From Blasia pusilla (Eukaryota), in assembly GCA_050084515.1 (NCBI GenBank), contig CM114271.1, positions 27,032,001 to 27,096,000 on the forward strand: a stretch of DNA of 64,000 nucleotides, in the 5' to 3' direction. The position numbers were made by a program, and so were the translations under genes. Numbering within the stretch: the first letter of the stretch is position 1; every line of letters starts with the position of its first letter. Below the pieces are notes generated by a model. The model was not told where the DNA came from, did no database searches, and saw only the letters and a list, made by a program, of their open reading frames with translations. Shown piece after piece: positions 33,466 to 63,049 of this stretch.

Positions 33466-33817
33466 TTGTACAAGGTGTCAAAGGCATTCAAACTGTCATA
33501 TATGTAGTTCAACCTGTCATGTACCACAAAAACAAACAAAAGAGGTCACAAATCAAAGTTTGTTATGCTTCTACAACAATTGATAGCCATACATAACATC
33601 AAATAACTATCCTCATTCCAACTTCAAGACTTAATCCATTTAATTCATTACAACCCAACCAAAACGTCCATTCAACATGAGTTATAGTTTTGAGTCTGAA
33701 GATACAAAACTCTTGAAAACATCAAAGTAATTTGTGCAAAATATTACACCTGAAATATGTAATGAGACTATAGACCCATTGTTCTTACCTACAAAATTTC
33801 TCTATCGTATTCAGTGA

Positions 33818-35247: not shown

Positions 35248-35251
<4 letters not shown>

Positions 35252-35280
<29 letters not shown>
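35252..35280. repeat. (TC)n microsatellite
   Basis: Directly visible. Confidence 0.9.
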
Positions 35281-35282
<2 letters not shown>

Positions 35283-37599
35283 GATCCATCGCTTCACGCC
35301 GCCAACACAATGTGCATGGGTTGTTGCTAGCCAGCTAGCGCGGATAAAAAATCTTCCACCTCTAGAAGATCGTCCAGCTCCGTTTCTTGCTCGCACAGGA
35401 GCTCCACGAAAGAACCAAAATTGCTACGCAGTGTTCGCGGTGAGATTCTTGCTTCCTCTTACAGCATTCAGAGTCAGATTTTGCTTCCCCTCTCAACTTT
35501 CTAGAGTTAGATTTTTGCTTCCTCTCACAGCTTTTCGGAGTCGGATTTTCGCTTCCGCTCACAGCGTTCAAGGCCTTTCTCCACTTGAGAGAAGTAATGA
35601 CGACACATATATCCTTGAACCTTAGAGATTCTCCGTATCCTTCTAGTGCCTCCCTTGCAGCTTCCTCAGTTTGATCCGCATTCTTTTGCTTCCGCAAGAT
35701 TTCCCCAGACAGGTTCAACTTGGACCTAGAGGCTACCCATCTGTCCACAACATACCTCAGAGTCTTCTCGCACTGAGCCCAGTATGATCCTCAGTGGAAT
35801 TATCCTTGGAGATCTCTATATTCAACAGCCTCAGCTGCTCACCCAGAGATGAGTTCCTTTGACAGCATGAGGGGGATCTTGTCCGTTTTGAAATTAGAAT
35901 TGGACACAGCTTTTGTGCTTCTCACGAGAGCTATCATCCTCGGCTTGAGATGGAGAGGCATCGGAGTCTCTCAGCAAAATAGAAGAGCTTCTTAACGCTC
36001 AGGAATAAGCGGAAACTACACGAGAGGATCTCCGACAGGTCCTAACGCTTGCCTCAAAGCTGAAAGTAGAGACATTCAACCAAGGCTATGGTCACAAGGC
36101 TACGACAGGCACTACTTAATGAGTACAGTCTCTATGGGGTAGATTGATGAAGAAAACCACTTCTTCTAGATCAAGATAGCTAAGCAGGTGGGAATTCTGA
36201 ACAATATTTGCACAGCAATTTTATAGTTCAGGCCCAATGCACTCCTAGGGAACTTCCCCTATGAGGCTCACTCGGGTTCTATTGACAGAACCACCAACAA
36301 CGGGGACATCCTCATTATAGGTGATGTCAAGAGAAGAATGGGCAGCAACCAAGCTCCAATCTATATGCCAACCAGGAATATGGAGGCACATGCTAAAAAA
36401 CATCATCCCTTAAATTCGTCTCTGAAGGAACTTCACCGCAACTCCAATGCACATCGGAAGACACGTAAAAGCTAAATTGGTTGGCTTGGTGAATGCCGAT
36501 CGCATCTTGCAAAACAAACTGCAATCCTTGGCGACTCTAGTGGCGCTTTCAAAGCCCAAATGCCCCCTCTGGTGAAGACATAGAGAGCTATTCTCCGCGC
36601 CTTTCACTTTACGTAAAGACATGGACACTAAAACAATTGTTGGACATATACGTGTGACACTATTAGTGTGAATGTTGGGCTCATCGGAAGAAGATGCCCA
36701 ATTCCTTTCACCCACGCTCTGGTTGGGCTACTCAAATTTGAGCTTGCCCGATGTGCAAGTCTATTGATGGCAAGACAAGGCGATGGTGATCTCGAACAAT
36801 GCGTGAGCGCGCGTAAACCTTTTGTCGAGAGAAATTTGGACCAGCGGAAGATCGGTGAGCTTTGAAATGCGGTTGCTTCACTCTCACAGGGGCCATGTGA
36901 ATCTGAGGTGGCTACATCACTAAAAACCATAATGGTCCACTCCGTCCATTGTCACCCTTGTAGGAAATGAAATCAATGCCAATTTAGTAGGTCAGCAACC
37001 ACTACCCACCATCGTGACTAGCTTTGGCTTTCAGTCGAGACACGTGAGGCTGCTCACTGCACCCGTTAAACTTGGCCGAGTGTACATCGCCTGTAGCTAG
37101 TTGATGGTATGCTTTGTCTAAATCGACTGAAATCTCTGAAGGGTGACATGCAATTAGACAGAATTAGAGATCTTTCGGATTTGGAAGCGTACAGTTGCCA
37201 AGAAATGGAAGGGAACCAGTGATGAAGGGCGTGTACTAAGTGGGCATTCTAACGCGAGATAAGAAAGTGATTGTAAACGACCGTTGGCAATATGCTAAGA
37301 GCTTACCAATACACAAAGCTGGATGAATTTGTCGCCGAACCGATGAAAGAGGTTGGATTGCAATAGAATTAGGCTCAACTCGTTCTCTGGCTATCAGCAA
37401 TGGAGACTCTCTCGATTAGGCTCAGGTGGAAGAACATCTCGAAACTGGAAGATGATCTATCCGTGAAGAAGCTGGACGCATTCATATTCCGACACAACAA
37501 ACTGGAAAAGAAGAAGAACCATTCATACCTAAAGTTTTTTGGATTCATCACCCCCCGGCTGACAAAAAAAAAAAATCCACTCACCTTCCAATCGACGCC

Positions 37600-37684
37600 C
37601 TCTCGCCTTACAAAATCAGGCCACTCCCGATCACTTTCGCTCTCGCCTTACAAAATCAGGCCACTCCCGATCACTTTCGCTCTC
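37600..37684. repeat. Perfect 40-bp tandem duplication inside the transposon
   Basis: CTCTCGCCTTACAAAATCAGGCCACTCCCGATCACTTTCG occurs twice in tandem. Confidence 0.9.
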
Positions 37685-38165
37685 CTGCTGCGCCACTCCA
37701 CTCGAGTCACGCTAAGCCACGCTCTCCTGCCCTGAGAAAGTTGTGCACTCGGAAGGGGCTTCAAGTTGCGGCTCAATTTGGCGCTCAAAGCTGGTCTTCG
37801 AAGGCCAAAACCCTAGACCCAACAAACCCAACTAAAATTGAGAGGGAAACTTCAAAGTAAGCACTTCCTTCTTCCCTCTAAAACTTTTCCATAAAATTGA
37901 TTTTTTTAGCTAGGGAAGCTAATTTTTGTAAAACAATAATTTAATATATGTAGATGTGACATGTATAAACCCTATCTTATCTTAACATTTTCCATGGAAG
38001 GAAGACTAATAAAAAATACCTATTGTTCTTATAAGAGTTTGATGGAATAAATTATGCCCTATTATTCTTCCACAAAACTTAATAAGTCTTCCGATGGACG
38101 CAATTAAAAAACCCCTAACTTTTTCGCACGTGATGGGGCATTTGTGTGGAAGTGAGACCCCCGAG

Positions 38166-38671
38166 CACGTAGAGAGCAAGGATCAGAAAATTTGAGTCCT
38201 TGTTCAGAATGTAAATATTAGAGTCAACAGTGGTGCTGACAAAACCAATGTCGAGTAAAACATAGTGACATCGTTCATACCGCATATGGGCTGATTGCTT
38301 CAAACCATAAATGGACCTTTCGAGAAGGCAGACCAAGTTATTATGGGGAACTAGCAAGCCTGGAGGAAGGGCCATGTAGATCTTGTGTTGCAAGAATCCA
38401 TATAGAAAAGTAGTGATTACATCTAATTGATGTAAGTCCACGTTGAAATAAGCAGCGATAGCAATTACAATACGAAGAGATTGAAGTTTAACAGTAGGAG
38501 AAAAGGTCTCGTCATAATCAAGATCAGGAACTTGAGTAAATCCTTTAGCAACCAGACGGGCTGTGTACTTGTGGATCGTGCCATCCACATGAGGTTTCAT
38601 TTAAAAAACCCAACGGCAACCAATTGTGCTTTGATTAGGAGGAAGGGGAACCAAAGTACAAGCCTTCATTC
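38166..38671 (-). other. Inverted segment of the Copia RT coding region
   Basis: The RT N-terminal half (TLVPLPP..KYTARLVAKGFTQ..SIYGLKQS..LALYV) reads on the minus strand. The rest of pol reads on the plus strand and resumes at LYVDD near 38675. Confidence 0.95.
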
Positions 38672-39680
38672 CTCTCTACGTGGATGACACTTTCATCGCC
38701 AACTCCATTCGTTTTGCGCTGCTTTATTTTGTCAAAACGAAGCTCCTCCAAGAGTTTGAAATGACTGATCTCGGTGAAGCTTATCATGTTTTGGGAATTC
38801 ATATCCAACGAGACCAACAACAAGGATGGATCAGGCTCAACCAGACGACTTACATCACCAACAAACTCAAACAGTTCAACATGCTAGGCTGCAAACCTAT
38901 CTCCACTCCTTTGGATTTTGGCCTTCATCTTAGTCAAGATCAATCTCATGTTCATCTTGATGACATTGCAGCAATGTCTTCTATTCCTTATAAAAGTGCT
39001 ACAGGAAGTTTAATGTGGGCAATGGTGTGCACTCGCCCCGATATTGCCTATTCTGTTAGCACTGTTGCACACTTTATGACCAATCCTGGTCCTATACACT
39101 AGACTGATGTCAAACGTATTTTCAGGTATCTCCAAGGGACAAAACATTACTTTCTCCAATATCAACGCTCATCTATTCCTTTTCATCTTCAAAGATATTC
39201 TGATGCTGCCTATGGAGATAAAATCGACTCCCAAAAATCTACTAGCGGATTTTGCTTTCTCCTTGAAGGAAGAGCAATTAGTTGGGCAAGTAGAAAACAA
39301 AAGTCAGTTGCTCTTTCAAGTACCGAGTCTGAGTACATTGCAATGACTAAAACTAGCACTGAAGCTATTTGGATCAGAAGATTACTTTACGAAATTGGTT
39401 TTACTCAGAAGATAACCGAGATCTTCTGTGACAACCAAAGTGCTATTGCTTTGGTCAGTTCTACAAAACATCATGACCGCACCAAACACATTGACATTCA
39501 ATACCACTATATCAAAGATCAAGTATCAAGTGGCAAAATTATTCTGACCTATATTTCAACTGCAAAGATGATTGCAGACATTTTTACTAAGGGTTTACAG
39601 AAAGGACCTCATTAGAAACATACTGAATCTCTAGGGTTAACTAGTAATCAAAATGGCTGATTTGTTCCCCTGAGTGGGAG

Positions 39681-40007
39681 TGTAGGAAATCAATAAAACC
39701 TGCGAAAAAAATCATCAAAGTACTGATCCAAGAATTGATCACACGCATCAATCCATACGAACGATCTAGATTTGATTAGGATCAATGTTCTGTTTATGAG
39801 CATTGATTATTGCTAGTAACGTTTCATCTTGCGAAACGATATATAGCTATGAGACATTTCTGAAGTGACATAGTTACCGTCACATCTTTTGATTACGGCT
39901 CTTAGTTTAGAGCAGACTTTACTACTTATGTATCGGCTTTTCAATCTATCAATACAGAGAACACAGAGAGTACAAACGCAATTTCAATTCATTCTGCAAT
40001 TCTCACA
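39681..40007 (+). repeat. Copia 3' LTR
   Basis: Preceded by the purine-rich tract GAGTGGGAG and followed by TSD TATGG. Confidence 0.95.
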
Positions 40008-41653: not shown

Positions 41654-44600
41654 TGTCACATCATAGTTAGCCGACAAATACAATTCATAAGATTGTTCAA
41701 GCATAAATCCTTCCTTAGTGTTTATATGAGGTTAGTGATAACTCAATTGCGTCGAGATTGTCATTTTGAACAAACCCTCTATTTTGCTATTTTGGGCTAG
41801 GTGACCCATTGATGGGTTCAACGATCATCATGTTGCCATTTTAGGCTATTTTTGGGGGAAGAGCTCTTTTAGCCCTTCCCAAGGGTATAAAGGCGGGAGA
41901 GATGGCTTTCATTGGCCATCTCTCTCATATTTAGCCTTTAGAGCATTCATCCTTTTAGGGTTTCATAGAAGTTTGAGTACTAGAGTTTGGATTCCCTTAT
42001 GGCAGAGGGTGGATGTGGCTTGATACAGAGATATACATTTGGGAGTGAAGTTGATTGTGTGAGTTATTTTTACGAGATGACGTCCGTACTCCTTAGAGTG
42101 GAGACATGACACACTTGGATTTACACATTTATTATGTGGCAGTGTTCGAAGGAAGGTATTAGAATGCTAAATCTCTTTGGAGGGATTTAGCTCAAGGTTA
42201 GTTATAGTGTTGTTGGCAATCATACAAATGCATCAGTACCTCTATGTTGGGAGAGATGAGATCACACAACGATATCCTAATTTATTACTAGAATTTGTAA
42301 TATAATACAGGAATACTAGTGTACACTATCTTTTGGTATTTCTTTTTTGGGGCATAAGACCTAGATAGAGTTGCCACCATTGATTTGGTAATCTCTAGAT
42401 CGCCCTGCTAAAGTCATTAATTGGATTTTCGAGGACTTGGTTTGTATGATCTGAGGTCGAACATGGGATTGAGCATATTTTGGGATATGTTGTGTGTATT
42501 GTAGCACATAACATGCTAGATGTTATTGCAAGGCACATGTCGTGCGCATACACATCGCTACACAACATACATCGTTATCACCGAACACACACGCAAACAC
42601 TCACGATCCCATGCTAACTCATGGCATCCAAACAACGAGACAAGAAGTACTAAAATATCTCCAATAAAGTAAGATCCAATCTCTCTCTACACCATCTCAT
42701 ACCATAGCTCTCAAAAGTGTGCATTCTCTCTCATGTCAAACCAAACCCACTCTCTTGATGAGAGACTTGGGTTACACTCACAAGGCAAGGGACCATAGCT
42801 CCGCCGCCTTATGCCAAGAGGTTCAACAAAGAGAGAATGGTCTCTCAAGTTCTCTCTCCTTGAGGTATACCCATCCCCTCTCCCAAGCTCTCTCCATAGT
42901 AACCTATTCTCCCAAGTCACCTCCTTGGCTCTTGACCTAATGTAGGAGGTCAAGGGCCACTTACCAAAAATATAAAGTCGATCATATACTCAAAATGGTA
43001 ATTACCTAAAATAGTAAGTTTCTCAATATGGCTCCAAATGAGCCTAAACGAAGGGGAAACCTGCTCTCTCAAGTTTCCCGGGGCCTCAACAGGTTACCCT
43101 CAACCTACTGAGCATATCCTCCACTATTCATGTAGGCGCTCTACTACATCTCACTGATCTATCCTAAAAGATGTGACATTTGTCGTGCATATACACATCG
43201 CTGTCACCAAACACACACACAAACGCGCACGATCCCATCCTAACTCATGGCATCCAAACAAAGAGACAAGAAGTACTAAAATATCTCCAATCGCTCCCCT
43301 AGTTGGTGGTTAGGTCCCTCTAATTCCAGATAGCCATCTATCCCTACCTACCATGACATACATCTCTCGCACACTAAGAGCAAGAAAGGCCAGGTGCTCA
43401 TGTGGCCCCATCATTAGTCGCCTTCTTGTCATCCATATCACAAAAGAAGTCGGAATCAAAACGAACCTGTATCTCCTCTATGTACATCTGGGATATATCC
43501 ATCGTCCTCGAGGAATCCTAGTGAGAGGTGGCGTCAGACATGCCATATGCCAACCTCTCGAACATCCATCACAGACTAGCATCGTGGCCGCACCAAGGGC
43601 AGAACCACACAACATACAACGCAAGCCTGCAAGAACTACTGTTAAGCTCGGATCTACTATACCATCAATGTTAGGAAGATGATATGGCGCACAATTACGC
43701 ACATGGTCCTTCCATACCATACCATCGTGCCCCTCCAGCAAGAGAACACTGGATGGCAAAACGTCACGCACTCTCAGGATAGTGCGCCCTGCAGTCACAT
43801 CCAATGTCGTCGATGTCGTTTGCTGAAAGAAGACATAATCTCTCTGATGAAACCTCTGGATAGTTGGTCGATAACCACCACCCCGAATAGTCACATACCT
43901 CAACGTATTCCGATGCTACGCAATCCCCAAGTTCTCGAACGCCATGGGCATCACTCTCCGAAATAACTCAGCTCTCTGAGAACATGCTCGCATCCATTCA
44001 TCTAGGTCATCAAGGTCTAGCACCTCACCAGCATCTCGACGAATGGCCGCAGGTAAATCTGGCTCTCAGCCATAAAGTAGCAAGTACGGTGAAAAAGACG
44101 CTAAGGATGCCTGCCTAATGAATCTCTATCCCATCGTCTGCACAACTCTCTCCGCTAATCCATCCGCCTCGAGACGATCTCGCGAAGTCGTGCGGTGGTT
44201 GATTAGCGCGTGATCACACAAGGTCTGGAACTCACCGCAAATCGGGTACTGATGCTCAACACTCACCGGTCGCCATAATGACTCAGCACTCTGTCAAGGA
44301 AGGCATAACCTACTCCCTCACTCGCTTTGTCAGGAAATACCTCGATCTACTTCGAGAAGTGCTCGACCATCATCAACACATAACGACTGTGACGCTCTGT
44401 CAAGGCAAAGGTCCTGCAAAATCCAAACTCCATCTATATCCTAAGCCCATGATCAGTAATGGATGCAATTGTGGAGTCGCAACATTGAACAATGCTCAGA
44501 CCCGATCACACACCATGCACCTGGCAAAAAACTGTTGAACGTCAATCTGCATGCCTCGCCACCAATACTGAATCTGGAGCAAGTTGTACGTCCGCTTCAT

Positions 44601-47600
44601 CCCAAAGTGATCCAACTCCTCATGGGCATGCTGCACTAGTCGTGCTCTCTGCAAAGGATGCAACACTACGTGTACTCTGCCATCCTCCCAAACCCTCAAA
44701 ATATGTGTCCCCTCCCAACGGAACTGTCTGGCCCGCTGTAGGATCTGATCCCGCTCTCTAGCACCCACGGTGCTCACAACGCTACCAGTACAAAGGTACT
44801 CCAAGACTTCTCCATCATCATGAATATCTCGGCCACTTGTCATGTCATCGCTATCCTCGGGATCCAAGGACTTTCCACTAGACCTCGCCATTGAAGTCTC
44901 CACACTCTAGCTCTCCATAGCCAACATGCCTAAATAGGCTGACGCGTGCCATTGTGGCAGTGACTCCTCATCACTCTCTCCATGCCATCGAGCTCCAATC
45001 GCATCTTGCTGACTTGGGCATGGGTTACGACTCAACCCATCTACATCCTAGTTGAGCGTCCCAGGTCTATGTACCACATGAAAATCATACTCCTGCAACA
45101 AGAGAGCCCATCTCGCAAGCTTCTGTGTAAGCTTGTCGGACTCCATCAACCACTTCGGTGGTTGATGATTAGTAATGATGGTAAAGGGATTGCCGAATAA
45201 GGAACACCTCAAATGCCAGACAGCCCACACTGCATCCAAGCACTCACCCTTATACGAGTTGTACTTCGCCTCTACAGCGTTGTTCGAGCGGCTAGCGTAA
45301 GCCACCACGAACTCTCTACCCTCATCATTATGTTGGGTGAGCACCGCTCCAAGCCCCAACATGCTCCAATATGTGTGCAACTGGAAAGGATGCCCCCTGA
45401 TCGGTATCCTCAAGATGGGCGTGGACGTCAACCTGTCCTTGAGCAACTGAAATGCTCGCTCTTACTCATCCCCCTAGTGCCACTCGTGATCCACCTTGGT
45501 CAGCAAGGTTAGCGGCTTCACAATCGAAGTGAATCCCTTGACGTACTGCCGATAGGAGTTCGCCAATCCCATGAATGCACGAACACGGCTCACATCTGTA
45601 GGGTGTGGAATGCGTGAGGTAGCCTCTACCTTCGTTTGCTGAACACCAAGGCCCCGTGGGTATATCGTATGACTCAAGTACTCAATCTGGTCGTAGAAGA
45701 ACTTGCATTTGCCTGGATGTAGCTTCAGCCCATGTAATTGCAATCATCGAAACACCTCCTCTAGATGTCGCTCATGCTCCTCAACCGTGGCGCTAAAGAC
45801 TATGATGTCATAAATATAACACCTAGAAAAATCCAGATCAGCCAAGATCCTATCCATGACCCTCTGAAACTCAATTGGGGCATTCTTTAACCCAAATGGT
45901 AAGAACCGCCACTGATACAAATAATCCTTCCCGTGAGGATCGATGCCCCAAAATGTCGTCTTTTGCATGTCCTCCAATCTGATAGGCAGCTGATGGTATT
46001 CGGCTCGCAAATCCAATGAACTGAAGAGCTTTGCGTGACCAATTGCATCAAAGATCTCCTCAGGGGTGGACAATGCATACCTATCGCACTTGGCATACCT
46101 ATCGGACTCGATGACTCTCAGCCTCGCGAGTAATCCCTGAATCATTGATCCCAAACATGCGGCACTCGATCTTCACTCTCCCTCCCCGAGACGTATAACG
46201 TACGACAACAAGCGGTGTGGTGCCGCAAATCGACCAAGCTATCATCTCATCGACAACCTACCCTCAACTCTAGACATCCCACACAGGTCTTTGTCCCCTA
46301 AACCACATTCATAAATGATGCTCTCAGCATCCACACAACCCAATATCCACAAATAAACTACCCAAATCCTTGAATCCCTTATGCGTGCAGGATAAAGGAC
46401 CAAAATAGGTAACCTGAACACATATTCATGTCGCTCCTCAACAACTACATATCTCGATCCCAACTCGGTCGTGGAGACAACTCTTCCAATGAGCAAGTCA
46501 TACTCCTCCCGTACTGACGCTGCTCAAAACTCCTCGATAGATTGTGCGGTTCCAACAGAACGGTGCGGCATTGCAGGTGGCACGGAACAACTACGAACGG
46601 AACGGCCCTCGATGGTGGGATGCGGCACTCGGCGGCATACCCTCCTCAATCAACAATAAACCCACACTCTGCTCCACAATAACGGAGCAACTCGTTGATG
46701 GAGACGGTGTGGTGCATCCATGAGCGGCACGGCACGGCAATCGACGGCGCGTTGCGGCTACGGGCGTCACGGTACGGTACTCGATAGTTGTCGAGCGGCT
46801 ACCAATCACAACATAACAACATGAAATCAAAACGAAAACACCATAACCGGAGGTCATCTACCATCACTGGTTAATGACGAAACAACGATGATGGTGGCGG
46901 CCAAAATTGCGTACGTGGTGGGACTTAAGTCAGAAAATCAATGAACGTTGTGGAAGACCTTCCACTCTCTAACGGCGGCAATGGCAACCAAAGGGTGGAC
47001 AACGGACGGTGGACCATTGACGATGATGGTTGACCGTTGATGGTGACGGCCGACCGGTGACGGTGATGGTTGACCATCAACGGTAGACCGTTGATGGTGA
47101 CTATGACGTCGACGGTCGCCGCCGGCGTGGCGGTTGGTTTGGGGTTTGAACAATTTAACCCTAAAAATTGCCTAGCAATGGCAATTTTGCAAGATTGACC
47201 ATAACTTTTTGCTCACAACTCAAAATTGCACACTATTTCTTGCACAACCTGCACAACTTTATGATCTACAACAACGTCAAAAAATATTTAGAATCAGACA
47301 TTCCAATAAAAACCGACAGGGATTGTCATAAAGCCCAATGTCTTTTTCTCTTAGACAAAATTTGGCAGCGCTTCTGCCCTGATTTCTCCCAACCAAAATG
47401 TAAAACCTATAAAAATACAAATCAACAAGCTACATGGTGCTCTCAAGAGCACCGGTATGGGGCAACCCGCCCCCATAATCAATCCCTATCATAAATTGGG
47501 CAGCGCTTCCGCGCGCCACTCTTCCACACGAAAAATCGACAAATGCAAAGAACAATCAAAATAGCCCTTGCTCCGGTGAGCACTCCCATGAGCTGCTGAA

Positions 47601-48598
47601 ACAACGAGGGACCAATGAGCTCCCCCATGAAGCTCTCTCACTCTCTCATTCTCTCTTTGTAAGTAAGATCCAATCTCTCTCTACACCATCTCACACCATA
47701 GCTCTCAAAGGTATGCACTCTCTCTCATGTCAAACCAAACCCACTCTCCTAATGAGAGGCTTGGATGAGACTCACAAGGCAAGGGACCATAGCTCTGCCG
47801 CCTTATGCCAAGAGGTTCAACAAAGAGAGAATGGTCTCTCAAGCTCTCTCTCCTTGAGATATACCCATCCCCTCTCCCAAGCTCTCTCCATGGTAACCTA
47901 TTCTCCCAAGTCACCTCCTTGGCTCTTGACCTGATATAGGAGGTCAAGGGCCACTTACCAAAAATATAAAGTTGATCATATATTCAAAATGGTACTTACC
48001 TAAAATAGTAAGTTCCTCAATATGGCTCCAAATGAGCCGAAACGAAGGGGAAACCTGCTCTCTCAGGTTTCCTGGGGCCTCAACAAGTCATCCTTGACCT
48101 ACTGAGCCTGTCCTCCACTAATCACAAAGACGCTCTACTACATCTCATCGATCTATCGTAAAAGACGTGACACACACGATCTGGAAGGATTATATGTGAT
48201 ATACTATCTTTCGAAAGTATGTGGGAAAGTTTATTCAATCTATGCAGTCATACATGTAGGTTTGAGGTGAATGTTGTGTGGATCTACAAGGGATGAAGCC
48301 ACAATGTTGGGATGTGATAGCTGTTCTAGAGTATCATATGTCGTATTTGGCACCTCATCAAGAAAAATTCACCCTTCTTGATGAGGCTCCGACAGAACAA
48401 TGATTATGTCCCAAATGTGCATAAATAATCCATTATGTCAAATGAATATGATGTGTGCTACTTGGAGTTAGGAGACCCAATTTCCAATTCGGGGGTGGTT
48501 GTGATCTTATTACATATGTATGAGTCAATTTTTGTATGTTTGCGGATCTACCTATGCGTTGGGAAGATCAATGAATAACGATGTCTATATGCACGACA
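41654..48598 (+). mobile_element. Old, internally deleted relative of the DNMT/PHD Gypsy family; host of the 42538-48172 insertion
   Basis: Begins TGTCAC and ends GCACGACA like the younger copies; flanks ATCT/ATCC (imperfect 4-bp TSD). Degenerate DNMT motifs I-IV at about 42100-42505 (EGIRMLNLFGGI, HQYLYV, IDLVISRSPC, FWDML). Degenerate integrase tail and PHD at about 48175-48425 (MLCGSTRDEATMLGCDSCSR..LCPKC). Confidence 0.7.
42538..48172 (-). mobile_element. Gypsy-type retroelement with split direct repeats (copy A); retains RT-RH-INT-PHD, lacks most of gag, PR and DNMT
   Basis: A1 47661-48172, B1 43181-43291, A2 42666-43178, B2 42538-42665; TSD CACA on both sides. RT at 45474-46100 (LPFGLKNAP). 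RH at 45048-45446. Integrase HHCC at about 44500-44630 and core at about 44130-44460 (WSLDFAGPLP, DGLAER). PHD at 43478-43630. Confidence 0.93.
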
Positions 48599-50567: not shown

Positions 50568-51696
50568 TCTCAGCCACAGGACCCCAAATCGCGATAGAAA
50601 AACCGATGTTAACGCGACTTCCTCCGCCTTCGCCCTAAAGCTCGATCACAACCAACGTTTGCAACTCTCGTCCGACAGTAGCAAACCAAAACATCTCCAA
50701 TGCATCTCGTCAACACCCTGACTCAAACGCTGCTCGATTCATAGCACAAGATTGATAAGAACTGGGTAGTGGCATGATCGTACTCCTCCCAAAGCTCGAT
50801 CGGCTTGACTTAGCAGAATTAGGAGCTCTATCCCACATCCCCGCAATGCATGCATTTTCTTTGCCTCCGAGACATGGAATCGTCTAAACTTTAAACATCT
50901 CTTGCAACCCTCAGATTCATAGGAGTGCCTTAGCCTTAACGTATTCCAATTACCGCTTGAGCCCCTCACTCTATTCCGCCACAACTGCATTCTCCGGCGG
51001 GAAGTTTTGCTGTCAACGCCCTGTCCAAACCAGCCCCGTTCAAGCGGCGCGGCCCAGCCATCCGCTTTCGGCCGCAGCGTCTTGACCGCCAGAATCCAGC
51101 CAGCCACCCTTGGCAACGATATGATCACCATCGCTTTCCCTGCACGAATGTGGGGCCTACCTGAGGTGTGATAGAGGTATGCTCTCGATAGACTGTAATT
51201 TCATGTTTCCCTCCTAAGGAAGAAAAAAAGGGAGGACGATGTTTCTAAAGCCCGAAGCCTTTATGGTTGCGGGCTTAGGGGTTCCCACTAATTGGGAACC
51301 CTTGAGCGCCCTAACCTACCCATTATCTCCTAACTTACCCCCAACTCCCTAACTAACGTCTTTCCTCAAGGTTACCCCTATGGGCCTATCACGTCCTTTA
51401 AGATAGATCGGTGAGATCTAGTAGAGCATCTTCAAGAGTAGTGGAGGATAGGCCTAGGAGGTCGAGGATGACGTGTTGAGGCCCCGGCGAAACCAGAGAG
51501 AGCAGGTTTCCCCTTCGTTTTGGCTCATTTGGAACCATATTGAGGAACTTACTATTTTAGATGAGTACCATTTTGAGTATATGATCGATTATCTATTTTT
51601 GGTAAGAAGCCCTTGACCTCCTACATCAGGTCAAGAGCCAAGGAGGTGACTTGGGAGAATAGGTTACCATGGAGAGAGCTTGGGAGAGGGGAGGGA

Positions 51697-51918
51697 TATA
51701 TATCCCAAGGACAGAGAGTTTGAGAGCTCATTCTCTCTTTGTTGAACCTCTTGGCATGAGGCAGTGGAGCTATGGTCCCTTGCCTTGTGAGTGTAACCCA
51801 AGCCTCTCACTAGGAGAGTGGGTTTGGTTTGACATGAGAGAGAGTGCACACCTTTGAGAGCTATGGTGTGAGATTGTGTAGAGAGAGATTGGATCTTACT
51901 TTACAAAGAGAGAATGAG
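51697..51918 (+). promoter_or_regulatory. Retroelement TATA box, Inr-like start and self-complementary primer-binding site
   Basis: TATATA at 51697-51702. About 28 nt downstream, CTCATTCTCTCTTTGT (51727-51742) is the exact reverse complement of ACAAAGAGAGAATGAG (51903-51918), which lies right at the end of repeat A1. Confidence 0.75.
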
Positions 51919-54900
51919 AGAGTGAGAGAGCTTCATGGGGGAGCTCATTGGTCACTCGCTATTTTTTCAGGTTGGGGATCGTGTTCCCTATTCAACGGCT
52001 CATGGGAGTGCTCATTGGAGCAAGGGTTGCTTGGATTGTTCTTTGCATTTGCCGATTTTTCATGTGGAAGAGTGGCGCGCGAAAGCGCTGCCCAATTTCT
52101 GATAGGGATTGAGTATGGGGGCGGGTTGCCCCATGCCGGTGCTTTCGGGAGCATCATGTTGCTTGCTGATTTGCATTTTTACAGGTTTTACAATTTTGTT
52201 GGGAGAAATGAGCGCGGAAGCGCTGCCAAATTTTTTGTAGGAGAAAGAGACATTGGGCTTTACGACAGTCCCCGTCAATTTTTTACTGGAATGTTTGATT
52301 CTGAATATTTTTTTATGCTGGCATAGATCGTGAAGCTCTGCACGCTGTGCAACAAAAAATGCACAATTTGGAGTTGCGAGAAAAAAATTATGGTCAATCT
52401 TGCAAAATTGCTATTGCTAGGCAATTTTTAGGGTTAAATTGTGCAAACCCTAAACTAGCCGCCACACCAGCGGCGGCCGTCGCCGTCATAGTCACCATCA
52501 ACCTTCAATGGTCAATCATCACCGTCAATGGTCCACCGTCCGTTTTCCACCCTTGGTTGCCATTGCCGCCGTTACGGAGTGGAGGGTCTTCCACAACGTT
52601 CGTTGATTCTCAGACTTGCGTCGCCATCACGTACTTTGTTTTGGTCGCCACCGTCATGAACCTGTGATGGCATATGACCTCATGTTATAGTGTTTGAGTT
52701 TTGATTTCATGCTGTTATGTTGTGATTGGTAGCCGCTCAACGACGATCGAGTACCATGCCGTGACGCCCATAGCCGCAACGCGCTGCCGATTGCCGCGTC
52801 GTGCCGCTCGTGGCCGCACCGCAGCGTCTTGATCGCGGAGCCGCTCTGGCATTGTGGAGAAGAGTGTGGGTTTATTGTTGATTGAGGAGGGTATGCCTCC
52901 AAGTTCCGCATCCCATCATCGAGGCCGTGCCGTTCGTAGCCGTTCCGTGCCGCCTGCAACGCCACACCGTTTCGCTGGAACCGCACCGTCTATCGAGGAG
53001 TTTTGAGCAACGTCAGTACGGGATGAGTATGACTTGCTGATTGGAGGATTTGTGTCCATGACCGAGTTGGGGTTGAGATTTGCAGTTGTTGAGGAGCGAC
53101 ATTGACATGTGTTCAGGCTACCCATTCTGGTCCTTTACCTTGCACGTGTGATCATGAGGGATTCTGGGATTTGGGTAGTTTATTTGGGGATACTGGGTGT
53201 GTGGATGCTGAGAGCATCATTTATGTATGTGGTTTAGGGGACATAGACCTGTGTGGGATGTTCGGAGTTGAGGGTAGGTTATCGGTGAAATGATAGCCTG
53301 GTCGATTTGCCCCACCACGCCGATTATTGCCGCACGTTACATGTCTCGGGGAGGGAGAGTGTAGATCGAGTGCCGCATTTTTGGGATGAGTGATTGAGGG
53401 ATTATTCGCAAGGCAAGAGTGATCGGGTGAGAAGGGCATGAGGGTCATCACGGCGTCCGTTCGGGACTTTGAGAGGCGAGGTGGTGAACCCGAGAGCAGC
53501 TCTAGAGGTTTTACGCGGAGTGGCGTGAGGTTCTGAGGGTCTTCACTTGAGGGACCACCTCGACCTCCTTCTCTGTCATCGTCACACAAGGGGGAGGGTG
53601 TAGAGGAGTTTGTGAGCACATCGCCACACATTGTGAAGAGAGAGTCAGGAGAGGAGAGAGAGTCAGGAGAGGCTACTTCCTCTTCCACAAGTGATGTTTT
53701 AGGAGGAGCCTAGAGATCGTTCACCAAGTAGTCCCGTTGGGAGACGAGGAGCTGGAGTTTCCCGACAGGGTGGTGGAGCTGCCCGTGGAGGAGGTAGAGT
53801 ACTACCACCTAGACGTTGGACGTGAGGGTGGGATGGCTGCTCAGATACAGTAGTTGCATGAGCAGATTGCCGCTATGGCATTGAGGTTACCCGATGTCGG
53901 ATCCGTGGCATCGATATCATATGGAGCAGCCAGAGATGTGGAAGGTCCTAGTTGGATGTGCGGGGTTTCCCAGATGGAGGCCGCCGCAGTTGTGACGCGT
54001 GGAGCAGCTGCAGAGTTGGATCCACAGCGAGAGGAAGCCAGGAAACAGACAAGGCTTCCTCAGTCTTTCACGTTGTCCGAGGCGATGAGGATCCCATCGA
54101 TGGGTCCTGAAGAGCTGGTGATGTTGTTGGTGTGTAGGCATGGAGGGCGATGGGAGAAGCGAGTATGACGACTCCTATTGTTGATGCTCAGGAGGGGCAT
54201 GTGTTGAGCACGTTCTTGGGGGCGGCCACCGTTGTGTACCGCACTCCTTTATTTTCTGCTTCTGATGTTATGACGTTGGGGGGTACGCCCGCCGAGGCTT
54301 TTTGGCTGGCCGCTTCACTATGTGAGCGCAGAGTTGGAGTTCTTGCATCACGTTCAGAGGTGATTGCAGAGGAGGTGATGGACATGCCCTTGGAGCGGAT
54401 GCTCGGGCCGTCTGCGTCAGATGCATGGTAGGCTGCGGCTGCTAGGATGACGGAGATGCCCGCTAGACCCGCGATAGAGCATGCCATGGCTTCTCCTAGT
54501 GTTGTGTTGCTGGATAACCAAGGAGAGGTATTCCAGTTGGTGAGTCCCGGAGATAGAGCTTTTAGTCCATAGCGCGTCTTGTTGGATTCAGGAGCGCAAC
54601 CCCTGATGTTGGGGAAAGCGTCATTCAGAGGATTGGGCTTGACAAGAGCCGATGTGGAGTGTTGTCCATTCCAAATATAGACATCCTTTGGGTGGAGCAA
54701 GTACCACATAGTATATTCACCCGACATGAGGTCGTGGTGAGAATTCGCTGGGGACATCCTACAGATAAGTCCGTGGTGCGAGCCAAGGCGATAGTGACTA
54801 ATGCAGAGTCCTACGACGTCTTGGTTGGTGGAGCAGTGGTATATCCAATGGGGTTTGCCCTGGATTATTGGGAGGATTCAGCGTCCTACAAATCAGGATG

Positions 54901-55289
54901 GCAGTCAGGTGATGGGCGCCTTAGTTCATTATTCGTTCGATTCACAGGTGCAGTGATCGAGCAACGACCAGGAGAGATGGCGACCTTATCAGCATTTAGC
55001 AGTGCCATCACTTGGCCTAGTGATTTGATTGAGGGACATGTCCATGCAGAGGATACTCCCATTCCTGATATTTCTATGGAGAGGAGTGTTATGGTAGCTC
55101 CATCATTCCGTGGAGGAGAGGTGCCATTGTGGGGCTCGACTGAGGAGCTTCGAAGATTGGCATATGAGCACGTGCAGACCGCGTGGAGCGAGGCGTTTGG
55201 ACCGGAGCGTGACGGGTCTGAGGAACCCGAGGTAGCAAGGAGTGCTACGATGACACCCTTGGATACCACACCCATTGTGTGGTGTATCT

Positions 55290-56250
55290 TGGAGGAGGGT
55301 ATTCGAGTGTTAGATCTCTTTGGAGGGATTAGCACCGGGTTAGCTGTTGTTTTGCAGGCACGAGTGCGAGTACAACAGTACCTGTATGTGGAGAGTGATG
55401 ATGTTGCGAGGCGCGTCTCACTATGACATGTGGCGCACTTACGCCTATGTTTTCCCGACTTATTGTCTGTGTCCGCGGTACAGGGGTACCAGAGTTCCCT
55501 ACCCAGGGATATTTCGTTGTTGGGGGCGCAGGACTTAGAGCGGGTAGGGACCATTGATTTGGTCATTTCCGATTGGCCATGTGAGGGCCAATCGAGTGTT
55601 GGACGAGGAAGCGGGTTGGCTGACACTCGGTCTAGATTGTTTTGGGAGATGTTGAGGGTCTTACGGCGATTCAGAGAGCTGGTCTCATTCTCCAGCCTAC
55701 ATTCTGGAGAATGTGCCCATCTTAGGAGACTCCAGGTCACGGGTGGTGACGAGTGCTCATCAGGTGCGTGCTTGGATCGGCCCAAGCAGTATTCTTGGAT
55801 GGGGCGAGTGTAGGTTCTAGAGCCCATCGCCCGCGTCTATGGTGGACCAACTTGGTGCCTCATGCGGGGTTACGGAGGGCGTATGCGAGAGTGGAGCGCC
55901 CCTCCCATTTGTTAGTGGATTCCATTCTAGATCCAGGTCGTCGATCACAAGTAGAGAGGCACTATGATCGACCACCGCTGACTGTGGTCAACAGGGTAGG
56001 CAGGCCGCGGGCAGCCTTTCCCACGTTTGTGAGTTTTCCCGCTTCCTATGCATACAAGGAGGCCGATCCTGGCTTGGTTTGGGATGACCAGGTTCAGAGG
56101 TTGGTGGAGCCCAACGCTGACGAGAGAGAGCGGGCGATGGGATTTCCCACAGGAGGGACGGCAGTCTTGTCAGTATCAGAGGCATCATGACGCCATGTCT
56201 TGGGTCAAGCGATGGACCTGAACTACTTGATATGGATCTTCAGCTTGGGA
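55290..56250 (+). pseudogene. C5-cytosine DNA methyltransferase domain (DNMT3-like motif pattern) within retroelement pol
   Basis: Motifs in order: I IRVLDLFGGISTG (55301), II YLYVE, IV IDLVISDWPCEG (55571), V SRLFWE, VI YILENV (55701), VIII AHRPRLWWTN (55825), IX ERERAMGFP (56122), X LGQAM (56200). Interrupted by stops and frameshifts. Confidence 0.92.
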
Positions 56251-59200
56251 GTGGCTGAGCAGCGTCGGATGAGATCGCGACAGATCACAACGGTTGTGTT
56301 GGTGAGCCCCATGCCTACCGAGACAGTGGAGGCAGTGGCTAGGGGCGAGACCCGAGGAGATCGACACACCAGAGGAGATCGGGAGAGACACCCTTGGACT
56401 TCTTGGGATGTTTTGCAGGTACGCCACGAGATGATAGCCACAGCATCAAGCGTAGTTCCGAGCACTGCACGTGGAGGAGATCAGAATTTGCAGTTGGCAG
56501 CAGAAGAGCAGCCGAGTGTTGTTGTTCAAGATTGGATTGCACCATAGCAACCACCGAAACCCGCGCCAGAGAGTGTTACCATAGTCACGATCAAGACTTG
56601 GGAGCCAGATATGGGCCCTACATTGACAGGAGGAGAGCGGCACCGGATACATCAGTTCCTCAGGAGTTATAGGAGCTACTTTGCATTTAGCATGGAGGAT
56701 TTGGGTACGCTGAAGGGACCAGGGATCCGCATTGAGTTGTCAAGTGACACGCCGATCTTCCGACGACCCTACAGGTACAGTGATATGGAGAGGGCTCTGA
56801 TTCAAAGTAGGAGCTAGGACTTGGTCGGAGGAGGACTAGTGAAGATGTCCCATGGGGAGTATGCATTTGCCATTGTCATGCCCGCCAAGAAGGATGTGCA
56901 TGGCAACTGGACAGATAGGCGGATGTGTGGGGATTACCGACCTATCAATCGACAGACGAAGTCCGATAGTTATGCCATGCCCACCCTTGAGGAGATCTTT
57001 GATGCGATTGGTCACACAAAGGTCTTCAGTTCATTGGATTTGCGAGCCGGATACCATCAACTGCCTATCAGATTGGAGGACAGGCAGAAGATGGCATTTT
57101 GGGGCATCGATCCTCACGGGAAAGATTTTTTGTACCAGTGGTGGTTCTTACCATTTGGGTTAAAGAACGCCCCGACTGAGTTTCAAAGGGTCATGGATAG
57201 GATCTTGGCTGGTCTGGATTTTGCTAGGTGTTATATTGATGACATCATAGTCTTTAGCGCCACGGTTGAGAGCATGAGCGACATCTAGAGGAGGTGTTTC
57301 GACGATTGCAATTACAAGGGCTGAAGCTACATCTAGGCAAGTGCAAGTTCTTCTACAACCAGATTGAGTACTTGGGTCATACAATATACCCAGGGGGCCT
57401 TGGTGTTCAGCATTAAAAGGTAGAGGCTATCTCACGCATTCCACGCCCTACAGATGTGAGTCGTGTTTGCGCATTCATGGGATTGGCAAACTTCTATCGG
57501 CGGTACGTTAAGGGATTCAATTCAATTGTGAAGCCCCTGACCTTGCTAACAAAGGTGGATCATGAGTGGCACTCGGGGGATGAGCAAGAGAAAGCATTTC
57601 AGTTGCTCAAGGATAGGTTGACGTCTGCGCCCATCTTGAGGAGACCGAACCGGGGGCGTCCTTTCCAGTTGCACATAGATTGGAGCATGTAAGGGCTTGG
57701 AGCGGTGCTCACCCAACATGATGATGAGGGTAGAGAGTTTGTGGTGGCTTATGCTAGCCGCTCGAACAATGCTGCAGAGGTGAAGTACAACTCGTATGAG
57801 GGTGAGTGCTTGGCTGCGGTGTGGGCTGTCACGCATTTTAGGTGTTACTTATTCGGCAACCCCTTTACCATCATCACTGATCATCAACCACTTTAGTGGT
57901 TGATGGAGTCCGGTGGTTATCGACCAACTATCCGGAGGTTTCATCAGGGAGATTATGTCTACTTGCAGCAGACGGCACCGACGACGTTGTATGTGACTGC
58001 AGGGTGCACTATCTTGAGAGTGCGTGACGTTTTTCCATCCGGTGTTCTCTTGCTGGAGGGACGCGATGGTATGGTATGGAAGGACCATGTGCGTAATTGT
58101 GCACCATATCACCTTCCTAATATTGATGGTATAGTAGATCCGAGCTTAGCAGTAGTTCCTGCAGGGTTGTATGTTGTGTGGTTCTGCCCCTGGTGCGGCT
58201 ACGATGCTAGTCTATGATGGTTGTTCGAGAGGTTGGCATATGGCATGTTTGACGCCACCTCTCACTAGGGTTCCTTGGGGACGATGGATGTGTCCCAGAT
58301 GTACATAGAGGAGATACTAGGTAGGTTTCAATCCCGACTTTTTCTCTGACATGGATGACACGAAGGCGACTAACGATGGGGCCACATGAGCACCCAACCT
58401 TCTTGCTCTTAGCGTCTGAGAGATGTATGTCATGGTAGGTAGGGATAGATGGCTATCAGCAGTTAGCGGGACATAACCACCAGCTAGGGGGGCAATTGGA
58501 GATATTTTGGTACTTCTTGTCTCGTTGTTTGGATGCCATGAGTTAGCATGGGATCGTGCGTGTTTGTGTGTGTGTTCGGTGACAACGATGTATGTTGTGT
58601 AGCAATGTGTATGTGCACGACAACTGTCACGTCCTTTAGGATAGATCGGTGAGATCTAGTAGAGCGTCTTCAAGAGTAGTGTAGGACATGCCTAGGAGGT
58701 CGAGGATGACCTACTGAGGCCCCGTGAAACCTGCTCTCTCAGGTTTCCCCTTCGTTTTGGCTCATTTGGAGCCATATTGAGGAACTTACTATTTTAGGTA
58801 ACTACCATTTTGAGTATATGATAGACTTTCTATTTTTGTTAAGTGGCCATTGACCTCCTACATCAGGTCAATAGCCAAGGAGGTGACTTGGGAGAATAGG
58901 TTACCATGGAGAAAGCTTGGGAGAGGGGAGGGGTATATATCCCAAGGAGAGAGAGAGCTTGAGAGCTCATTCTCTCTTTGTTGAATCTCTTGGCATGAGG
59001 CGGCGGAGCTATGGTGCCTTGCCTTGTGAGTGTAACCCAAGCCTCTCATTAGGCGAGTGGGTTTGGTTTGACATGAGAGAAAGTGCACACCTTTGAGAGC
59101 TATGGTGTGAGATTGTGTAGAGAGAGATTGGATCTTACTTTATTGGAGATATTTTGGTACATCTTGTCTCGTTGTTTGGATGCCATGAGTTAGTATGGGA

Positions 59201-60420
59201 TCGTGCGTGTTTGTGTGTCTGTTCGGTGACAACGATGTATGTTGTGTAGCGATGTGTATGTGCACGACAGGCCTTTTCGGGCTAGAATGCTCCACCTTTC
59301 GATCATGAGGGATAATGTTGGACCGGAATGCCACAAATATCCATATATCCATCGTGGATATTGCCATGATATGGGTTTGTTTATGAAGCTTATCATGTAC
59401 ATGATCCCCATGGTAACCCCCAAGCCTACATGAGCAACATCACTCCCAAAAATGCCGACCTTCTTCTTTCTCTCCATCTTATGGACGTCAACTGGGGAAC
59501 TTGTGAGCTGAAGTGTATCTTTCCAATGAATAAAAATTTGTGTTGGAGATCCATGTAAGCAACCAATGATGACTTGAGGATGAATGAAATCTAACGGTCA
59601 TAACAACCCAACCATTGGAAGGAAGTTGAGTACGATTTGATGGCAGAAAATTGTATGTCAACGGAATGGCTTTTGACATCAGCGAATGACCTCATTCCTT
59701 GGAAAACCCTAAGCCTATTTTCCAAAGTTTTCTGAGCTGACTACTTGCAAAATGGTTTCCCACGATTGGACAGGTTTGTCCTCTTTGGAATGGTTTCCAT
59801 CGAACATTGCACCTTCTTTCGAGAATGGCCTTTGCATCTAACACGTTATTGCTCCAACATTATCGTTGCAATGTTATCGCTAGGATTCATCATTTGGTGC
59901 ATCTTTTATTAGACACCCAAGAGTATTGTTGCACGAAAGATACTAACGCTCAATATCCCGTTTGCAAAGGTCGGAGTACACGGAAAATGCTTTTTGTGTT
60001 TGGACTATTTTTTCTTGGAATTCTCTCTGTCACACATGCCTATGCACCATGGTGAACCTTTTTTTTTCCAATTTTCTTAGCAAATGTCTTCCTGCAACGA
60101 GCAATATCCTTAAGGCTTTAGAAAGTGTGTTCCTTCACAAGATGTAGTTAGGAAGGATTCGCGGGTTCTCTTGAGTGTGAACTTATGAAAAATTTGGTGC
60201 TCATGTTGAGGTACTCTTGGATTTTTCCACTCTTCCGCTCCTTCTCATATTCCACTACCCTATTGTTGTTGTGCTTATTAAACAACTTATGTAGTGTCAT
60301 TTTGGCATTAATAGGTCTTGGTAAATCTTCCCTTCGAGTTCAATCATGGCATCTACCTGTCTCCAAAGAGTTGTGTGAGGAGATTCATAGAGGATGGGGA
60401 AACCCTATACCTAGGGTCTA

Positions 60421-60585
60421 GGTTTTATTTTTTGCCTGTAGGATGCGATTGCAAAGCATGCACATCCACTTTTCCCCATCCTCTATGTATTTCTTGGGGA
60501 GAACACATATTGGAGATACATAGAGGATGGGGAAATGTGGATGTGCATGCTTTGTAATTGCATCCTAAAGGCAAAAAATAAAACC
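60421..60585. repeat. Long imperfect inverted repeat (about 73-bp arms, 19-nt loop)
   Basis: GGTTTTATTTTTTGCC...CTCTATGTATTTC pairs with GAGATACATAGAG...GGCAAAAAATAAAACC. Confidence 0.9.
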
Positions 60586-63049
60586 AAGTGCAATGAGAAC
60601 TTGATAAAAACCCACCCTGACTTGTATGAGTCATTGCTAGTCCTACTAGAAAATCCAAGTAGGCATGCTAAGGACCTAGAGATGGATCGTAAGATTGAAG
60701 TGACAAATGCCTAGAGCGAGAGAGAGTGCTCCTTAGGAAATCCAGGGATGCTCATAGGAGGGAGGCTAAAACCAGGAGGGAGCAACTCTACAGGTTGCAA
60801 AAATTCCACTCAAAGAGGTGGTTGTCTATGCAAAGGAGTCCTCATATCCCAAAACTAGGGAAGAAGCCATCACTGGTGGCTTTGATGGAGTGTAATTTGC
60901 ATATTCAGGATTCATGAAAGGATTCTGGTTGCAAGGTACCATGGCGTTCAAGCTACTCTATGGTAGCAGGGAAGAAAGTTCATAATTTTACACCAGCAAC
61001 AACAAAGTCCCCATCTACACCATTGAAAAGTAAGAAGTAAGACACTAGGATTTCTAAGCAGCTGGAAACCATTCCACCAACAGAAGATATGGGTATTGTG
61101 GAAGGCATTCCACCAGAAGTGAAAGTTGATGGTGCAGTTGCCACTCCACCCCCAAGTGAGAACTTGTCTATGGAAACCATTCCGAAAAATATTAAGGCCG
61201 ACAATGTGGATCCCACTCCACCCCCAAGAGAGAGTCTGTCTATGGAACCAATTCCATCAAGTGGGGAGTCCCTCAATGTGGATGCCACTCCGCCTACAAG
61301 ACCCTAATGCGGAAATCATTCCACCAAGGGGAGAGGGGGAATGTGTATGCAACATCACTTCCAAGAGATGATGCGACTATGGAAGCCATTCCAAACTCTC
61401 TATGTGGTGAGGTTGGGGAGCCATTCATCATGAAGGGGTCCGAGATGAGGATCATTTGGACAAGACAACTGGTTCTGAAATTTTCACCCTTTTTCATGAA
61501 GACATGGAGAATCCTTTAGCAAATTCGGTGCCATTGAAGGATCATGAAGATGTTGATGATGACACTCTTTTGAAGAAAAAACCATCCTCTAGAGAGTTGC
61601 AAGCCTTGAACAAAAATCTAGGCAAGACATTGTTGGGAGTTGCAAGAAAAGGAAGTGTTGGGAAAGGCCAAGTAGGTACTTGTGAGGAGCATGATGAGCA
61701 GGACCTTATCTCTAATACACACATCCTCAGGGATTCCAATGAGGACATTGGTAGTGAGTTACCAAGTGGCACCCACTCACAGGTGAGCAAGGCCAAGAAG
61801 GTGAAGTCCACACGAACAAGTTTGGCTCCTGCTATTAAGGAGTACATGGAATTAGGAAAGTCCAAGTTTGAAGTCCTCCAATAAATTATGGCAATCCCAC
61901 CAACCAGAGCTACCAAAAGGAAGAACAAGTACGGCCAGCTCAACTCTGGAGTGGAAAAGAAGAAGAAAAAGGTATGAATGTATGTATGAGTACCTATTTT
62001 CTTAAGGGTTTTTTTATTTCTGAAATTAATACCTTGTAGAGATGCAAGAGTTGTTTTTCTCTACCTTTAAATGTGCTCCCTTTCTTACTTTCATAATAGT
62101 TAAGCATGGATAGTAATGATATTTCTATCTTTGATTTTTTCTAGTTTTGTCGTTGCAGATGGCATAAATGGAGATGTTCCCATATCGGATCTGGGAAGCT
62201 AGTTTCCAAGATGTCTATGCCCGCTGGTTTTCAGATGCATCTCTCATGGCAGATATATAGCTTCGTTAGTTTTTGGCATCAACGCTGTAAATTTTGTACC
62301 TCTCAGATTTTGCTGAAAGGAATTTTGTAAAGAAGGCTCTTAAAGCATCTACTAGAGATATGTTGTTGGTTCTTCACTCGTACTCAAGTGACTGGCCTCA
62401 TAGTAGTAGAGTTATAATAGGTTTTGTCAAGTGGGACATGCTAGCACTTGGAATACCACCACCTTATACAAAGGGTATTTAATTCCAAATTCAAAGTGGT
62501 GGGAATTCGTAAATTCCCATGATTGCTGCAATCAAGTCATGGTGTCTTGTTCTTACATTGTGTATAATTTGGGCAGCATGTGGAATGCTGAGGTTGTGGC
62601 AAACTGTCGCAAACACACAGGTTCAAGAGCAATTCAAATGAGTAAGAAATTCTTGAACCTTCCCATGCTTACTAAACCCATCCATGCAATCAAGTGAACT
62701 TGGCCATACCAATCTTAAAAACCATTCCACTAGAAATAGAAACTATTCCATATGTCATAAATCCATTCCCACACGTCATGGAAAGCATTCCATCGACATA
62801 GTAATCTGGTCAAGTTGGAATGCAGAATGTGGATCCTCATCCAAACTTGTTCATGCACACAAAAACTTAATACATGTCTTCCCTCAAACATATCCAAAGA
62901 GATTAGTTTTTACGTCAATTGTACTCTTCTTATTGCTTATGCATCGTGGAAGCCATTCTGCACGCCATATGTTGGTTTATTTTGACACTTGTTTTTTCCT
63001 TCTTATTGACATATAGTGAAAGATTGATCAGAAACTTGGCCTCCCCGAC

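Follow-up and report, generated by a model that had tools for sequence, protein, structure and literature searches.

To our knowledge, self-priming, in which a retrotransposon starts minus-strand synthesis from its own transcript, has been proved experimentally for Tf1 only and is predicted for a few other groups. Tf1 primes with its own first 11 bases, in a process that includes RNase H cleavage (PMC7175516). Three features described for Tf1 and Tf2 of Schizosaccharomyces pombe and for the Tf1/sushi group recur in the element reported here: a primer-binding site (PBS) that is the complement of a segment of the element's own LTR at TATA distance, no tRNA site, and PBS copies kept at the cDNA end (PMC7175516, PMC11042837, bioRxiv 2022.12.06.519325). 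About half of Tf1 cDNA reportedly retains the PBS sequence at the 3' terminus, and copies of the PBS and of the polypurine tract (PPT) are reported at the ends (PMC11042837). The Tf1/sushi elements are described as chromoviruses in which three duplexes form a pretzel (bioRxiv 2022.12.06.519325, PMC4600332). In plants, self-priming has been predicted for Tcn1 chromoviruses of mosses and clubmosses and for TAR Copia elements, with a figure of 12% of the surveyed elements (PMC6317226), and the available text on SM-Tcn1 reports no sign of it (PMC2864245).

KnitGypsy-Dnmt3 of Klebsormidium nitens has the same Gypsy pol with a C5 methyltransferase as the element reported here (PMC5890265) and the same DIRS-type repeats, A-coding-B-A-B, together with Gypsy domains (PMC5890265, Fig. 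4c legend). This comparison is by description, not DNA, and the available text of that source gives no primer, PPT, target-site duplication (TSD) or replication route. Gypsy-Dnmt3 elements are only named in the accessible part of a preprint (bioRxiv 2026.05.21.726589), and a literature search, with most subscription papers, theses and Repbase reports outside its range, found nothing on their priming or integration. Chlamydomonas Gypsy-7a is described as having a PHD finger and LTR subparts (PMC9940879).

Results

The window analyzed is a 64,000-nucleotide stretch of the Blasia pusilla genome (GCA_050084515.1, contig CM114271.1, positions 27,032,001 to 27,096,000, forward strand). It contains a Gypsy element at 51387-59269 with the layout A1-internal-B1-A2-B2 and 4-bp target duplications. 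Features of the element and of a second copy are listed in Table 1. Such elements have TGTC...GACA ends, and a perfect 4-bp TSD was observed in 15 of the 16 elements with both ends and a 5-bp TSD in none. The sequence flanking A1 varies from copy to copy. B1, A2 and B2 followed in order in 7 of 10 regions taken from A1 onward, and the GACA-NN-TGTC motif at the B1/A2 join has 593 exact-pattern sites in the genome. A G-rich tract precedes B1 and not A2.

Table 1. Features of the self-priming candidate and of copy A (window coordinates)
Feature	Position	Strand	Basis or remark
Left 4-bp TSD, GGCC	51383..51386	.	Identical 4 bases at 59270-59273
Repeat A1, with promoter, R and U5 presumed inside	51387..51902	+	Repeat of 58625-59141; TGTC start in most copies
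TATA-like box	51697..51702	+	Sequence
Predicted self-primer, RNA 5' end	51727..51742	+	16/16 complement of PBS and covariation in related families; presumed start 51727-51730
PBS, not tRNA-type	51903..51918	+	Starts at A2-B2 join; first 2-18 bases recur inside A2/B2 junctions
C5 DNA methyltransferase domain, stop-broken	55267..56190	+	PF00145 match
Reverse transcriptase and RNase H, broken	56818..57692	+	PF00078, PF17919
Integrase C-terminal part and PHD finger remnant	57897..58310	+	Comparison with other copies
PPT abutting B1	58486..58494	+	Sequence; equal G-run before B1 in all four families
Repeat B1, GACA end	58495..58622	+	97% repeat of B2
2-bp spacer of internal GACA-NN-TGTC site, predicted integrase att	58623..58624	+	Spacer variable
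Repeat A2	58625..59141	+	Repeat of A1; primer-segment copy at 58966-58981
Repeat B2	59142..59269	+	A2/B2 junction 59141/59142, predicted joint of two cDNA ends
Right 4-bp TSD	59270..59273	.	Same bases as left
Copy A, second copy, same layout	42538..48172	-	TSD TGTG; primer 47820-47833, PBS 47647-47660

The reverse transcriptase (RT) of the window element has Ty3 RT as its nearest solved structure. About 1.35 kb, including the integrase core, is absent from the window copy at 57912/57913 and present in other copies, which gave rve, Integrase_H2C2 and C-terminal PHD matches. The integrase is of the DDE type (rve), and no tyrosine recombinase was found among the ORFs scanned. A tyrosine-recombinase element (PAT, Ngaro or DIRS) was ruled out by the rve integrase and the 4-bp TSD. 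A Chromo domain search of copy L031 gave no match and a PHD finger was found instead; this domain (PF00628) is present in many relatives. Protein relatives were named from Marchantia, Calypogeia, Sphagnum, Closterium and Klebsormidium, those of the RT from Klebsormidium, Closterium and liverworts, and those of the methyltransferase from liverworts and Sphagnum; none was found in a search of viral contigs. Two features of Gypsy-Dnmt3 elements were observed, a C5 methyltransferase within a Gypsy pol and A-coding-B-A-B repeats with a DDE integrase. In contrast to KnitGypsy-Dnmt3, the window's family (family W) belongs to a high-copy lineage with liverwort and Sphagnum relatives. The KFL protein P0086 shows 48% identity in the RT, with weak support for its placement in the tree.

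The sequence-only reading had claimed a perfect 16-nt complementarity between the bases that follow A1 and a segment within it, a 14-nt equivalent in copy A, and the absence of a TGG-type PBS after A1. Each of these claims held. The segment CTCATTCTCTCTTTGT (51727-51742) is the exact reverse complement of 51903-51918, 16 of 16, with pairing ending at both sides; copy A pairs at 14 of 14 positions (47647-47660 with 47820-47833); and the nearest TGG downstream is at 51936. The PBS thus described lies directly after U5 and is complementary to the element's own LTR, the arrangement expected of self-priming. A TATA-like run was also found where an upstream TATA box had been reported; it starts at 51697, so that 51727 and the A at 51730 lie 30 and 33 nt downstream of its first base. 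We use TATA box and Inr as labels for this run and for the primer start. In a fold of RNA 51727-51930 the duplex formed the closing stem (z -4.2; 0 of 200 shuffles equally stable).

Both segments of the W duplex are simple in composition and GA runs are common in the W LTR, as would suit low-complexity tracts, one rich in CT and the other in GA, that pair by chance. This explanation is contradicted by shuffling of A1 with the PBS fixed and dinucleotides kept, where none of 5000 shuffles produced 13 or more matching nt (best 12), and by the duplexes of three related families described below, which are not CT/GA repeats and have nevertheless kept their pairing. We accordingly regard the probability of a chance origin as negligible. 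In an unanchored test a 16-nt inverted match arose in 11 of 2000 shuffles of A1 plus PBS, a count that includes self-overlapping palindromes. Anchored matches of at least 14 nt in the whole window were limited to the window duplex, copy A, 10862 and a hairpin near 60470-60570.

Family W has a high copy number in its genome of 390 Mb, and a first look gave 2966 and 3546 candidate copies for two families. Thirty W copies were chosen by flanking sequence and 29 of them aligned, with L092 left out. The duplex was intact (16/16) in 14 of the aligned copies and at least 15/16 in 21. Compared with the window copy, the primer and PBS segments were 95-96% identical and U3 and R/U5 88%. Among 100 of 1038 PBS sites, subfamilies varied on either side of the PBS and the 16-mer was constant. 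No compensated change was found inside W in the 29 aligned copies, which we ascribe to the youth of the family.

A gag alignment was used to scan metagenome contigs and 80 loci were retained, with A...B-A-B complete in five. A duplex of 13-17 bp was observed at the same place in three further families, G2 from this genome and S1 and S2 from the metagenome contigs; RT identity of the other families to W is 58-73%. The S1 duplex pairs AACATAGTTCTTTGAGT with ACTCAAAGAACTATGTT (17/17 in L222, L240 and L281), and that of S2 pairs ACTTTTGGTGATT with AATCACCAAAAGT (13/13 in L280, L272 and the second element of L269). In G2, which is related to S1, CAGTTCTTTGAGT pairs with ACTCAAAGAACTG, and the eight G2 copies with both LTR parts showed 13-14 bp in four, 10-11 bp in three and 5 in one. 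No letters are shared beyond chance between the duplexes of W, S1/G2 and S2, and the PBS of each family begins at that family's own A2/B2 junction. G2 comprises L327 (G000:C6:19455232-19465009 region) and nine other copies, a second high-copy family of the same lineage with an RT about 70% identical to that of W. A1 and A2 of L327 are 99.5% alike, which indicates that G2 was recently active.

The S1 alignment consisted of 19 rows from 28 loci, with near-duplicates and deleted copies left out; 8 of the 28 loci either had lost the primer region or paired poorly, with 9-13 of 17 positions at best. Pairing was found in 90% of 323 cells as against 31-51% in slid registers. The pair 21/207 is A-U in 12 rows and G-C in 5, and the covariation score was reached by 5 of 500 shuffles; the count of S1 pairs with a two-sided change was not above shuffles (299/500). 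Single compensated changes were observed in L225 (G-C to A-U) and between L333 and L327, and in the second element of L269, an S2 variant, an insertion is compensated. A de novo duplex search upstream of gag in 21 more metagenome loci returned only this L269 element, LTR ends having been identified in none of the others. The covariation that self-priming predicts across family members is therefore absent within W, but the duplex has been kept with other letters in three families and through compensated single changes.

The PBS was compared with 45 distinct host tRNAs (63 calls, 50 loci, 18 anticodons), a partial set with no initiator Met. No 3' end among them fits (1 nt at most), in agreement with the tRNA independence originally claimed. 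The best internal fit, 9 nt with G-U, is to the anticodon arm of tRNA-Thr(TGT), 3 nt out of register. This match, the partial coverage of the tRNA set and the existence of half-tRNA priming in moss Copia lineages (PMC6317226) leave some room for a host small RNA, a tRNA half or another, as the primer, with the duplex serving another role such as packaging or translation control. However, the tRNA-Thr match would move the U5 end 3 nt off the junctions, and the tRNA-primed chromodomain Gypsy elements of the same genome (L316 and L317), which have ordinary LTRs, carry a TGG-type PBS. A stronger argument than the scan is that the PBS letters are wholly different between families and follow the element's own upstream segment from one family to the next, which does not allow a fixed host primer. 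Priming by a host small RNA is, in our judgment, very unlikely.

If the duplex primes, the right end of the cDNA should be the base before the PBS, and the A2/B2 junction sits there. The junctions agree to one base with the U5 end previously proposed at about 51902, the A at 51903 being assignable to either side. The 1718 junctions found by exact pattern vary at the join point, at the edge of the duplex. Reading the first 100 by eye gave 69 of precise length, 24 with one extra A, 4 with a piece of the PBS and 3 others. In 32 junctions that continue with AC, the PBS remnants form a ladder, with at least 10 PBS bases in 10; of the junctions with remnants this long, three belong to full B1-A2-B2 ends and another to a solo A-B unit flanked by a TSD of its own. 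PPT-like pieces are present inside the junctions of L127 and L335. Three remnants (17, 18 and 24 nt) overrun the 16-nt duplex by 1, 2 and 8 nt with leader letters, which a pure primer copy would not give; the start site is therefore not fixed by these remnants.

On a tree of 33 copies, junction class changed 9 times against a shuffled mean of 10.1 and was not clustered, in a test of weak power. A scattered class is as expected if the junction is remade in each cycle. The opposite is expected of a split-direct-repeat mode of the PAT/Ngaro type, where B2 would be transcribed and inherited, the junction would not be remade and the duplex would aid circularization of the cDNA. That mode would explain the use of one att site; RNA reads do cross A2/B2, and the repeat order is the same as in PAT/Ngaro-type elements (PMC5890265, Fig. 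1e and 4c legends). It is difficult to reconcile with the PBS and PPT remnants at A2/B2, with a DDE integrase and 4-bp TSD in place of a tyrosine recombinase, or with junction classes that do not cluster by descent (33 rows, weak power), and we consider it highly improbable. Remaking of the junction from the ends of self-primed cDNA accounts better for these observations.

Of 30 att sites sampled, 27 continue to B2, 1 to the PBS and 2 are truncated. B lies upstream of A1 in 1 of 30 copies picked by their flanks and in 0 of 30 picked by similarity. A symmetrical circle predicts that half of the copies should be A-B-A-internal-B, and the counts speak against it. The circle model put forward in the sequence-only reading is therefore upheld by the junctions as far as end joining is concerned, but a plain two-LTR circle fails to explain the near-exclusive use of one of two identical att sites.

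Three stranded RNA-seq runs with the same species label showed sense transcription, with no start peak listed at 51727-51730. The reads are mostly 90-95% alike to the element; read-through from B1 across A2 dominates, and reads cross A2/B2, running past the primer segment into B2. All three runs showed a rise in read depth at the 51728 bin (144 to 196, 251 to 318 and 137 to 172), for which an AG-length polymorphism just upstream may account. TATAA lies 29-31 nt ahead of the matching A in G2, S1 and S2, and a pyrimidine-A step is found at 30-34 from the TATA in all four families; the duplex begins on that A in S2 and one base earlier in G2. By this spacing, a primer of 12-14 nt from 51730 is just as likely as one of 16 nt from 51727. 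The segment originally implied as a 16-nt primer is supported, but its working length may be 12-14 nt.

In all four families the primer segment can form a local hairpin with a 5' arm upstream of the predicted start; in the A2 context of the window copy, it is folded with upstream U3 (58943-58980). Inclusion of U3 lowered the predicted long-range pairing from 0.98 to 0.0 in S2, from 0.97 to 0.0-0.16 in G2 and from 0.84 to about 0.5 in W; no loss was observed in S1 (0.87). The modeled hairpin could serve to hide the primer copy in A2. These folds bear on another possible source of the same priming segment: in place of the RNA 5' end in cis, it could be supplied by a partner RNA within the particle, or by the A2 copy located at the RNA 3' end or close to it. 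A2 holds the identical 16 nt, covariation and junction position would look alike for a trans or A2 source, and no start site was seen in the RNA-seq. Against such a source stand the folding of the A2-type context in all four families, the loss of long-range pairing on addition of U3 in three of them (not S1), the continuation of RNA reads past the A2 segment into B2, and the location of the primer segment at TATA distance in all four families. We consider a trans or A2 source unlikely and retain priming by the RNA 5' end.

Tf1-type flanking duplexes of the pretzel were above shuffles in 1 of 8 tests. The W RT is 29-36% identical to the RTs of the genome's chromodomain Gypsy elements and forms a clade separate from six of them in a midpoint-rooted tree without a named Tf1/Tcn1 reference. 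The duplex is 13-17 bp in the families described here and 11 in Tf1 (PMC7175516). In contrast to the Tf1/sushi elements, a PHD finger is present and no chromodomain, the LTRs are permuted, and the U5 end is not at the CA of the integrase. The label "Tf1-like" holds for mechanism, given the own-LTR PBS and the covariation, but not for membership: since the element has a PHD finger and not a chromodomain, lacks a general pretzel and has an RT apart from the chromoviruses of its genome, it appears to work like Tf1 and is not to be filed as Tf1/Tcn1. The Tcn1 and TAR elements are likewise plant LTR elements predicted to self-prime (PMC6317226); those have ordinary LTRs, and Tcn1 has a chromodomain.

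Discussion

The covariation, the scan of 45 host tRNAs and the U5 end fixed by the junctions support the original proposal of self-priming. We conclude, with a probability of roughly 0.8, that the family primes its minus strand through a long-range duplex in which the 5'-terminal 12-16 bases of the element's transcript act as the primer. Transcription would start at 51727-51730, and the 5' end of the RNA would pair with the PBS. A cut after 51742, made by the element's RNase H if matters proceed as in Tf1, would free the 3' end of the primer, and minus-strand synthesis would begin at about 51902. With the plus strand started from the PPT before B1, the linear cDNA would take the form B-A-internal-B-A, as in an ordinary LTR element with B+A as its LTR. 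The two cDNA ends would be joined, the A end to the B start, either before insertion, as a circle, or after it, by repair in the chromosome; we infer the joining itself from the junctions. Cleavage by the DDE integrase at the internal GACA-NN-TGTC, where the first B meets A, followed by insertion with duplication of 4 bp of the target, would yield A1-internal-B1-A2-B2. One 2-bp spacer could supply the overhang of both ends.

In IS3/IS911-type circle junctions, a DDE enzyme acts on two ends abutted across a short spacer, and retroviral two-LTR circles are end-joined cDNA with primer remnants. The present element differs from both in that cutting takes place within the LTR and the ends that become joined are distinct from those of the integrase. 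Two-LTR circles are normally dead ends; in the proposed route, by contrast, the joining of ends would belong to the productive pathway.

With moderate confidence, we extend this reading to a Gypsy lineage that ranges from bryophytes to charophytes and in which the ends made by reverse transcription would be uncoupled from those used by integrase. Such elements would self-prime, apparently outside Tf1/Tcn1, and join their cDNA ends, and the DDE integrase would cut a pre-formed CA-NN-TG inside one LTR, at one of two identical sites, making every insertion a circularly permuted provirus. If this is true, the lineage would represent a retrotransposon that cannot integrate productively unless its cDNA ends are joined. 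Predicted self-priming was already known from other plant lineages; what is new is a replication route for this repeat layout, together with a non-chromodomain self-priming lineage with cross-family covariation and cDNA-end scars in more than 1700 genomic junctions. The route is testable and concerns the A-B-A-B Gypsy layout described in 2018, where the available text gives no mechanism (PMC5890265). As programs that find LTRs rely on matching repeats at the two termini, the annotation of thousands of such copies in bryophyte genomes is probably wrong.

Additional observations

By pattern count, A2/B2 junctions (1718) exceed PBS sites (1038). Solo A-B units were found at L052, L055, L067, L078 and L345, some with a 4-bp TSD, and probably result from recombination of A1 with A2. 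At L134:613-2306, internal-B-A-B is immediately followed by a further B-A...B, which may represent joined ends in tandem. In rare copies (L096:1534-2106 and L122) B precedes an A that carries the PBS, as would be expected after use of the other att site or after tandem recombination. Another element is inserted in L105 near 1598.

Just past the window element, an inverted repeat of 76 bp (92%, 19-nt loop) occupies 60418-60588. The window also contains a Copia element at 25814-39979, with LTRs at 25814-26113 and 39680-39979 that are 95% alike; inside it, at about 29470-34528, is a minus-strand insert with ORFs that have no Pfam match except a weak PHD. An older direct-repeat pair, 78-85% alike, lies at 5105-6196 and 20237-21235, about 15 kb apart. 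Elsewhere, the small contigs C20 and C23 of G000 (L141-L144) encode methyltransferases that score far above those of the retrotransposons and may be bacterial contamination or organelle-like sequence.
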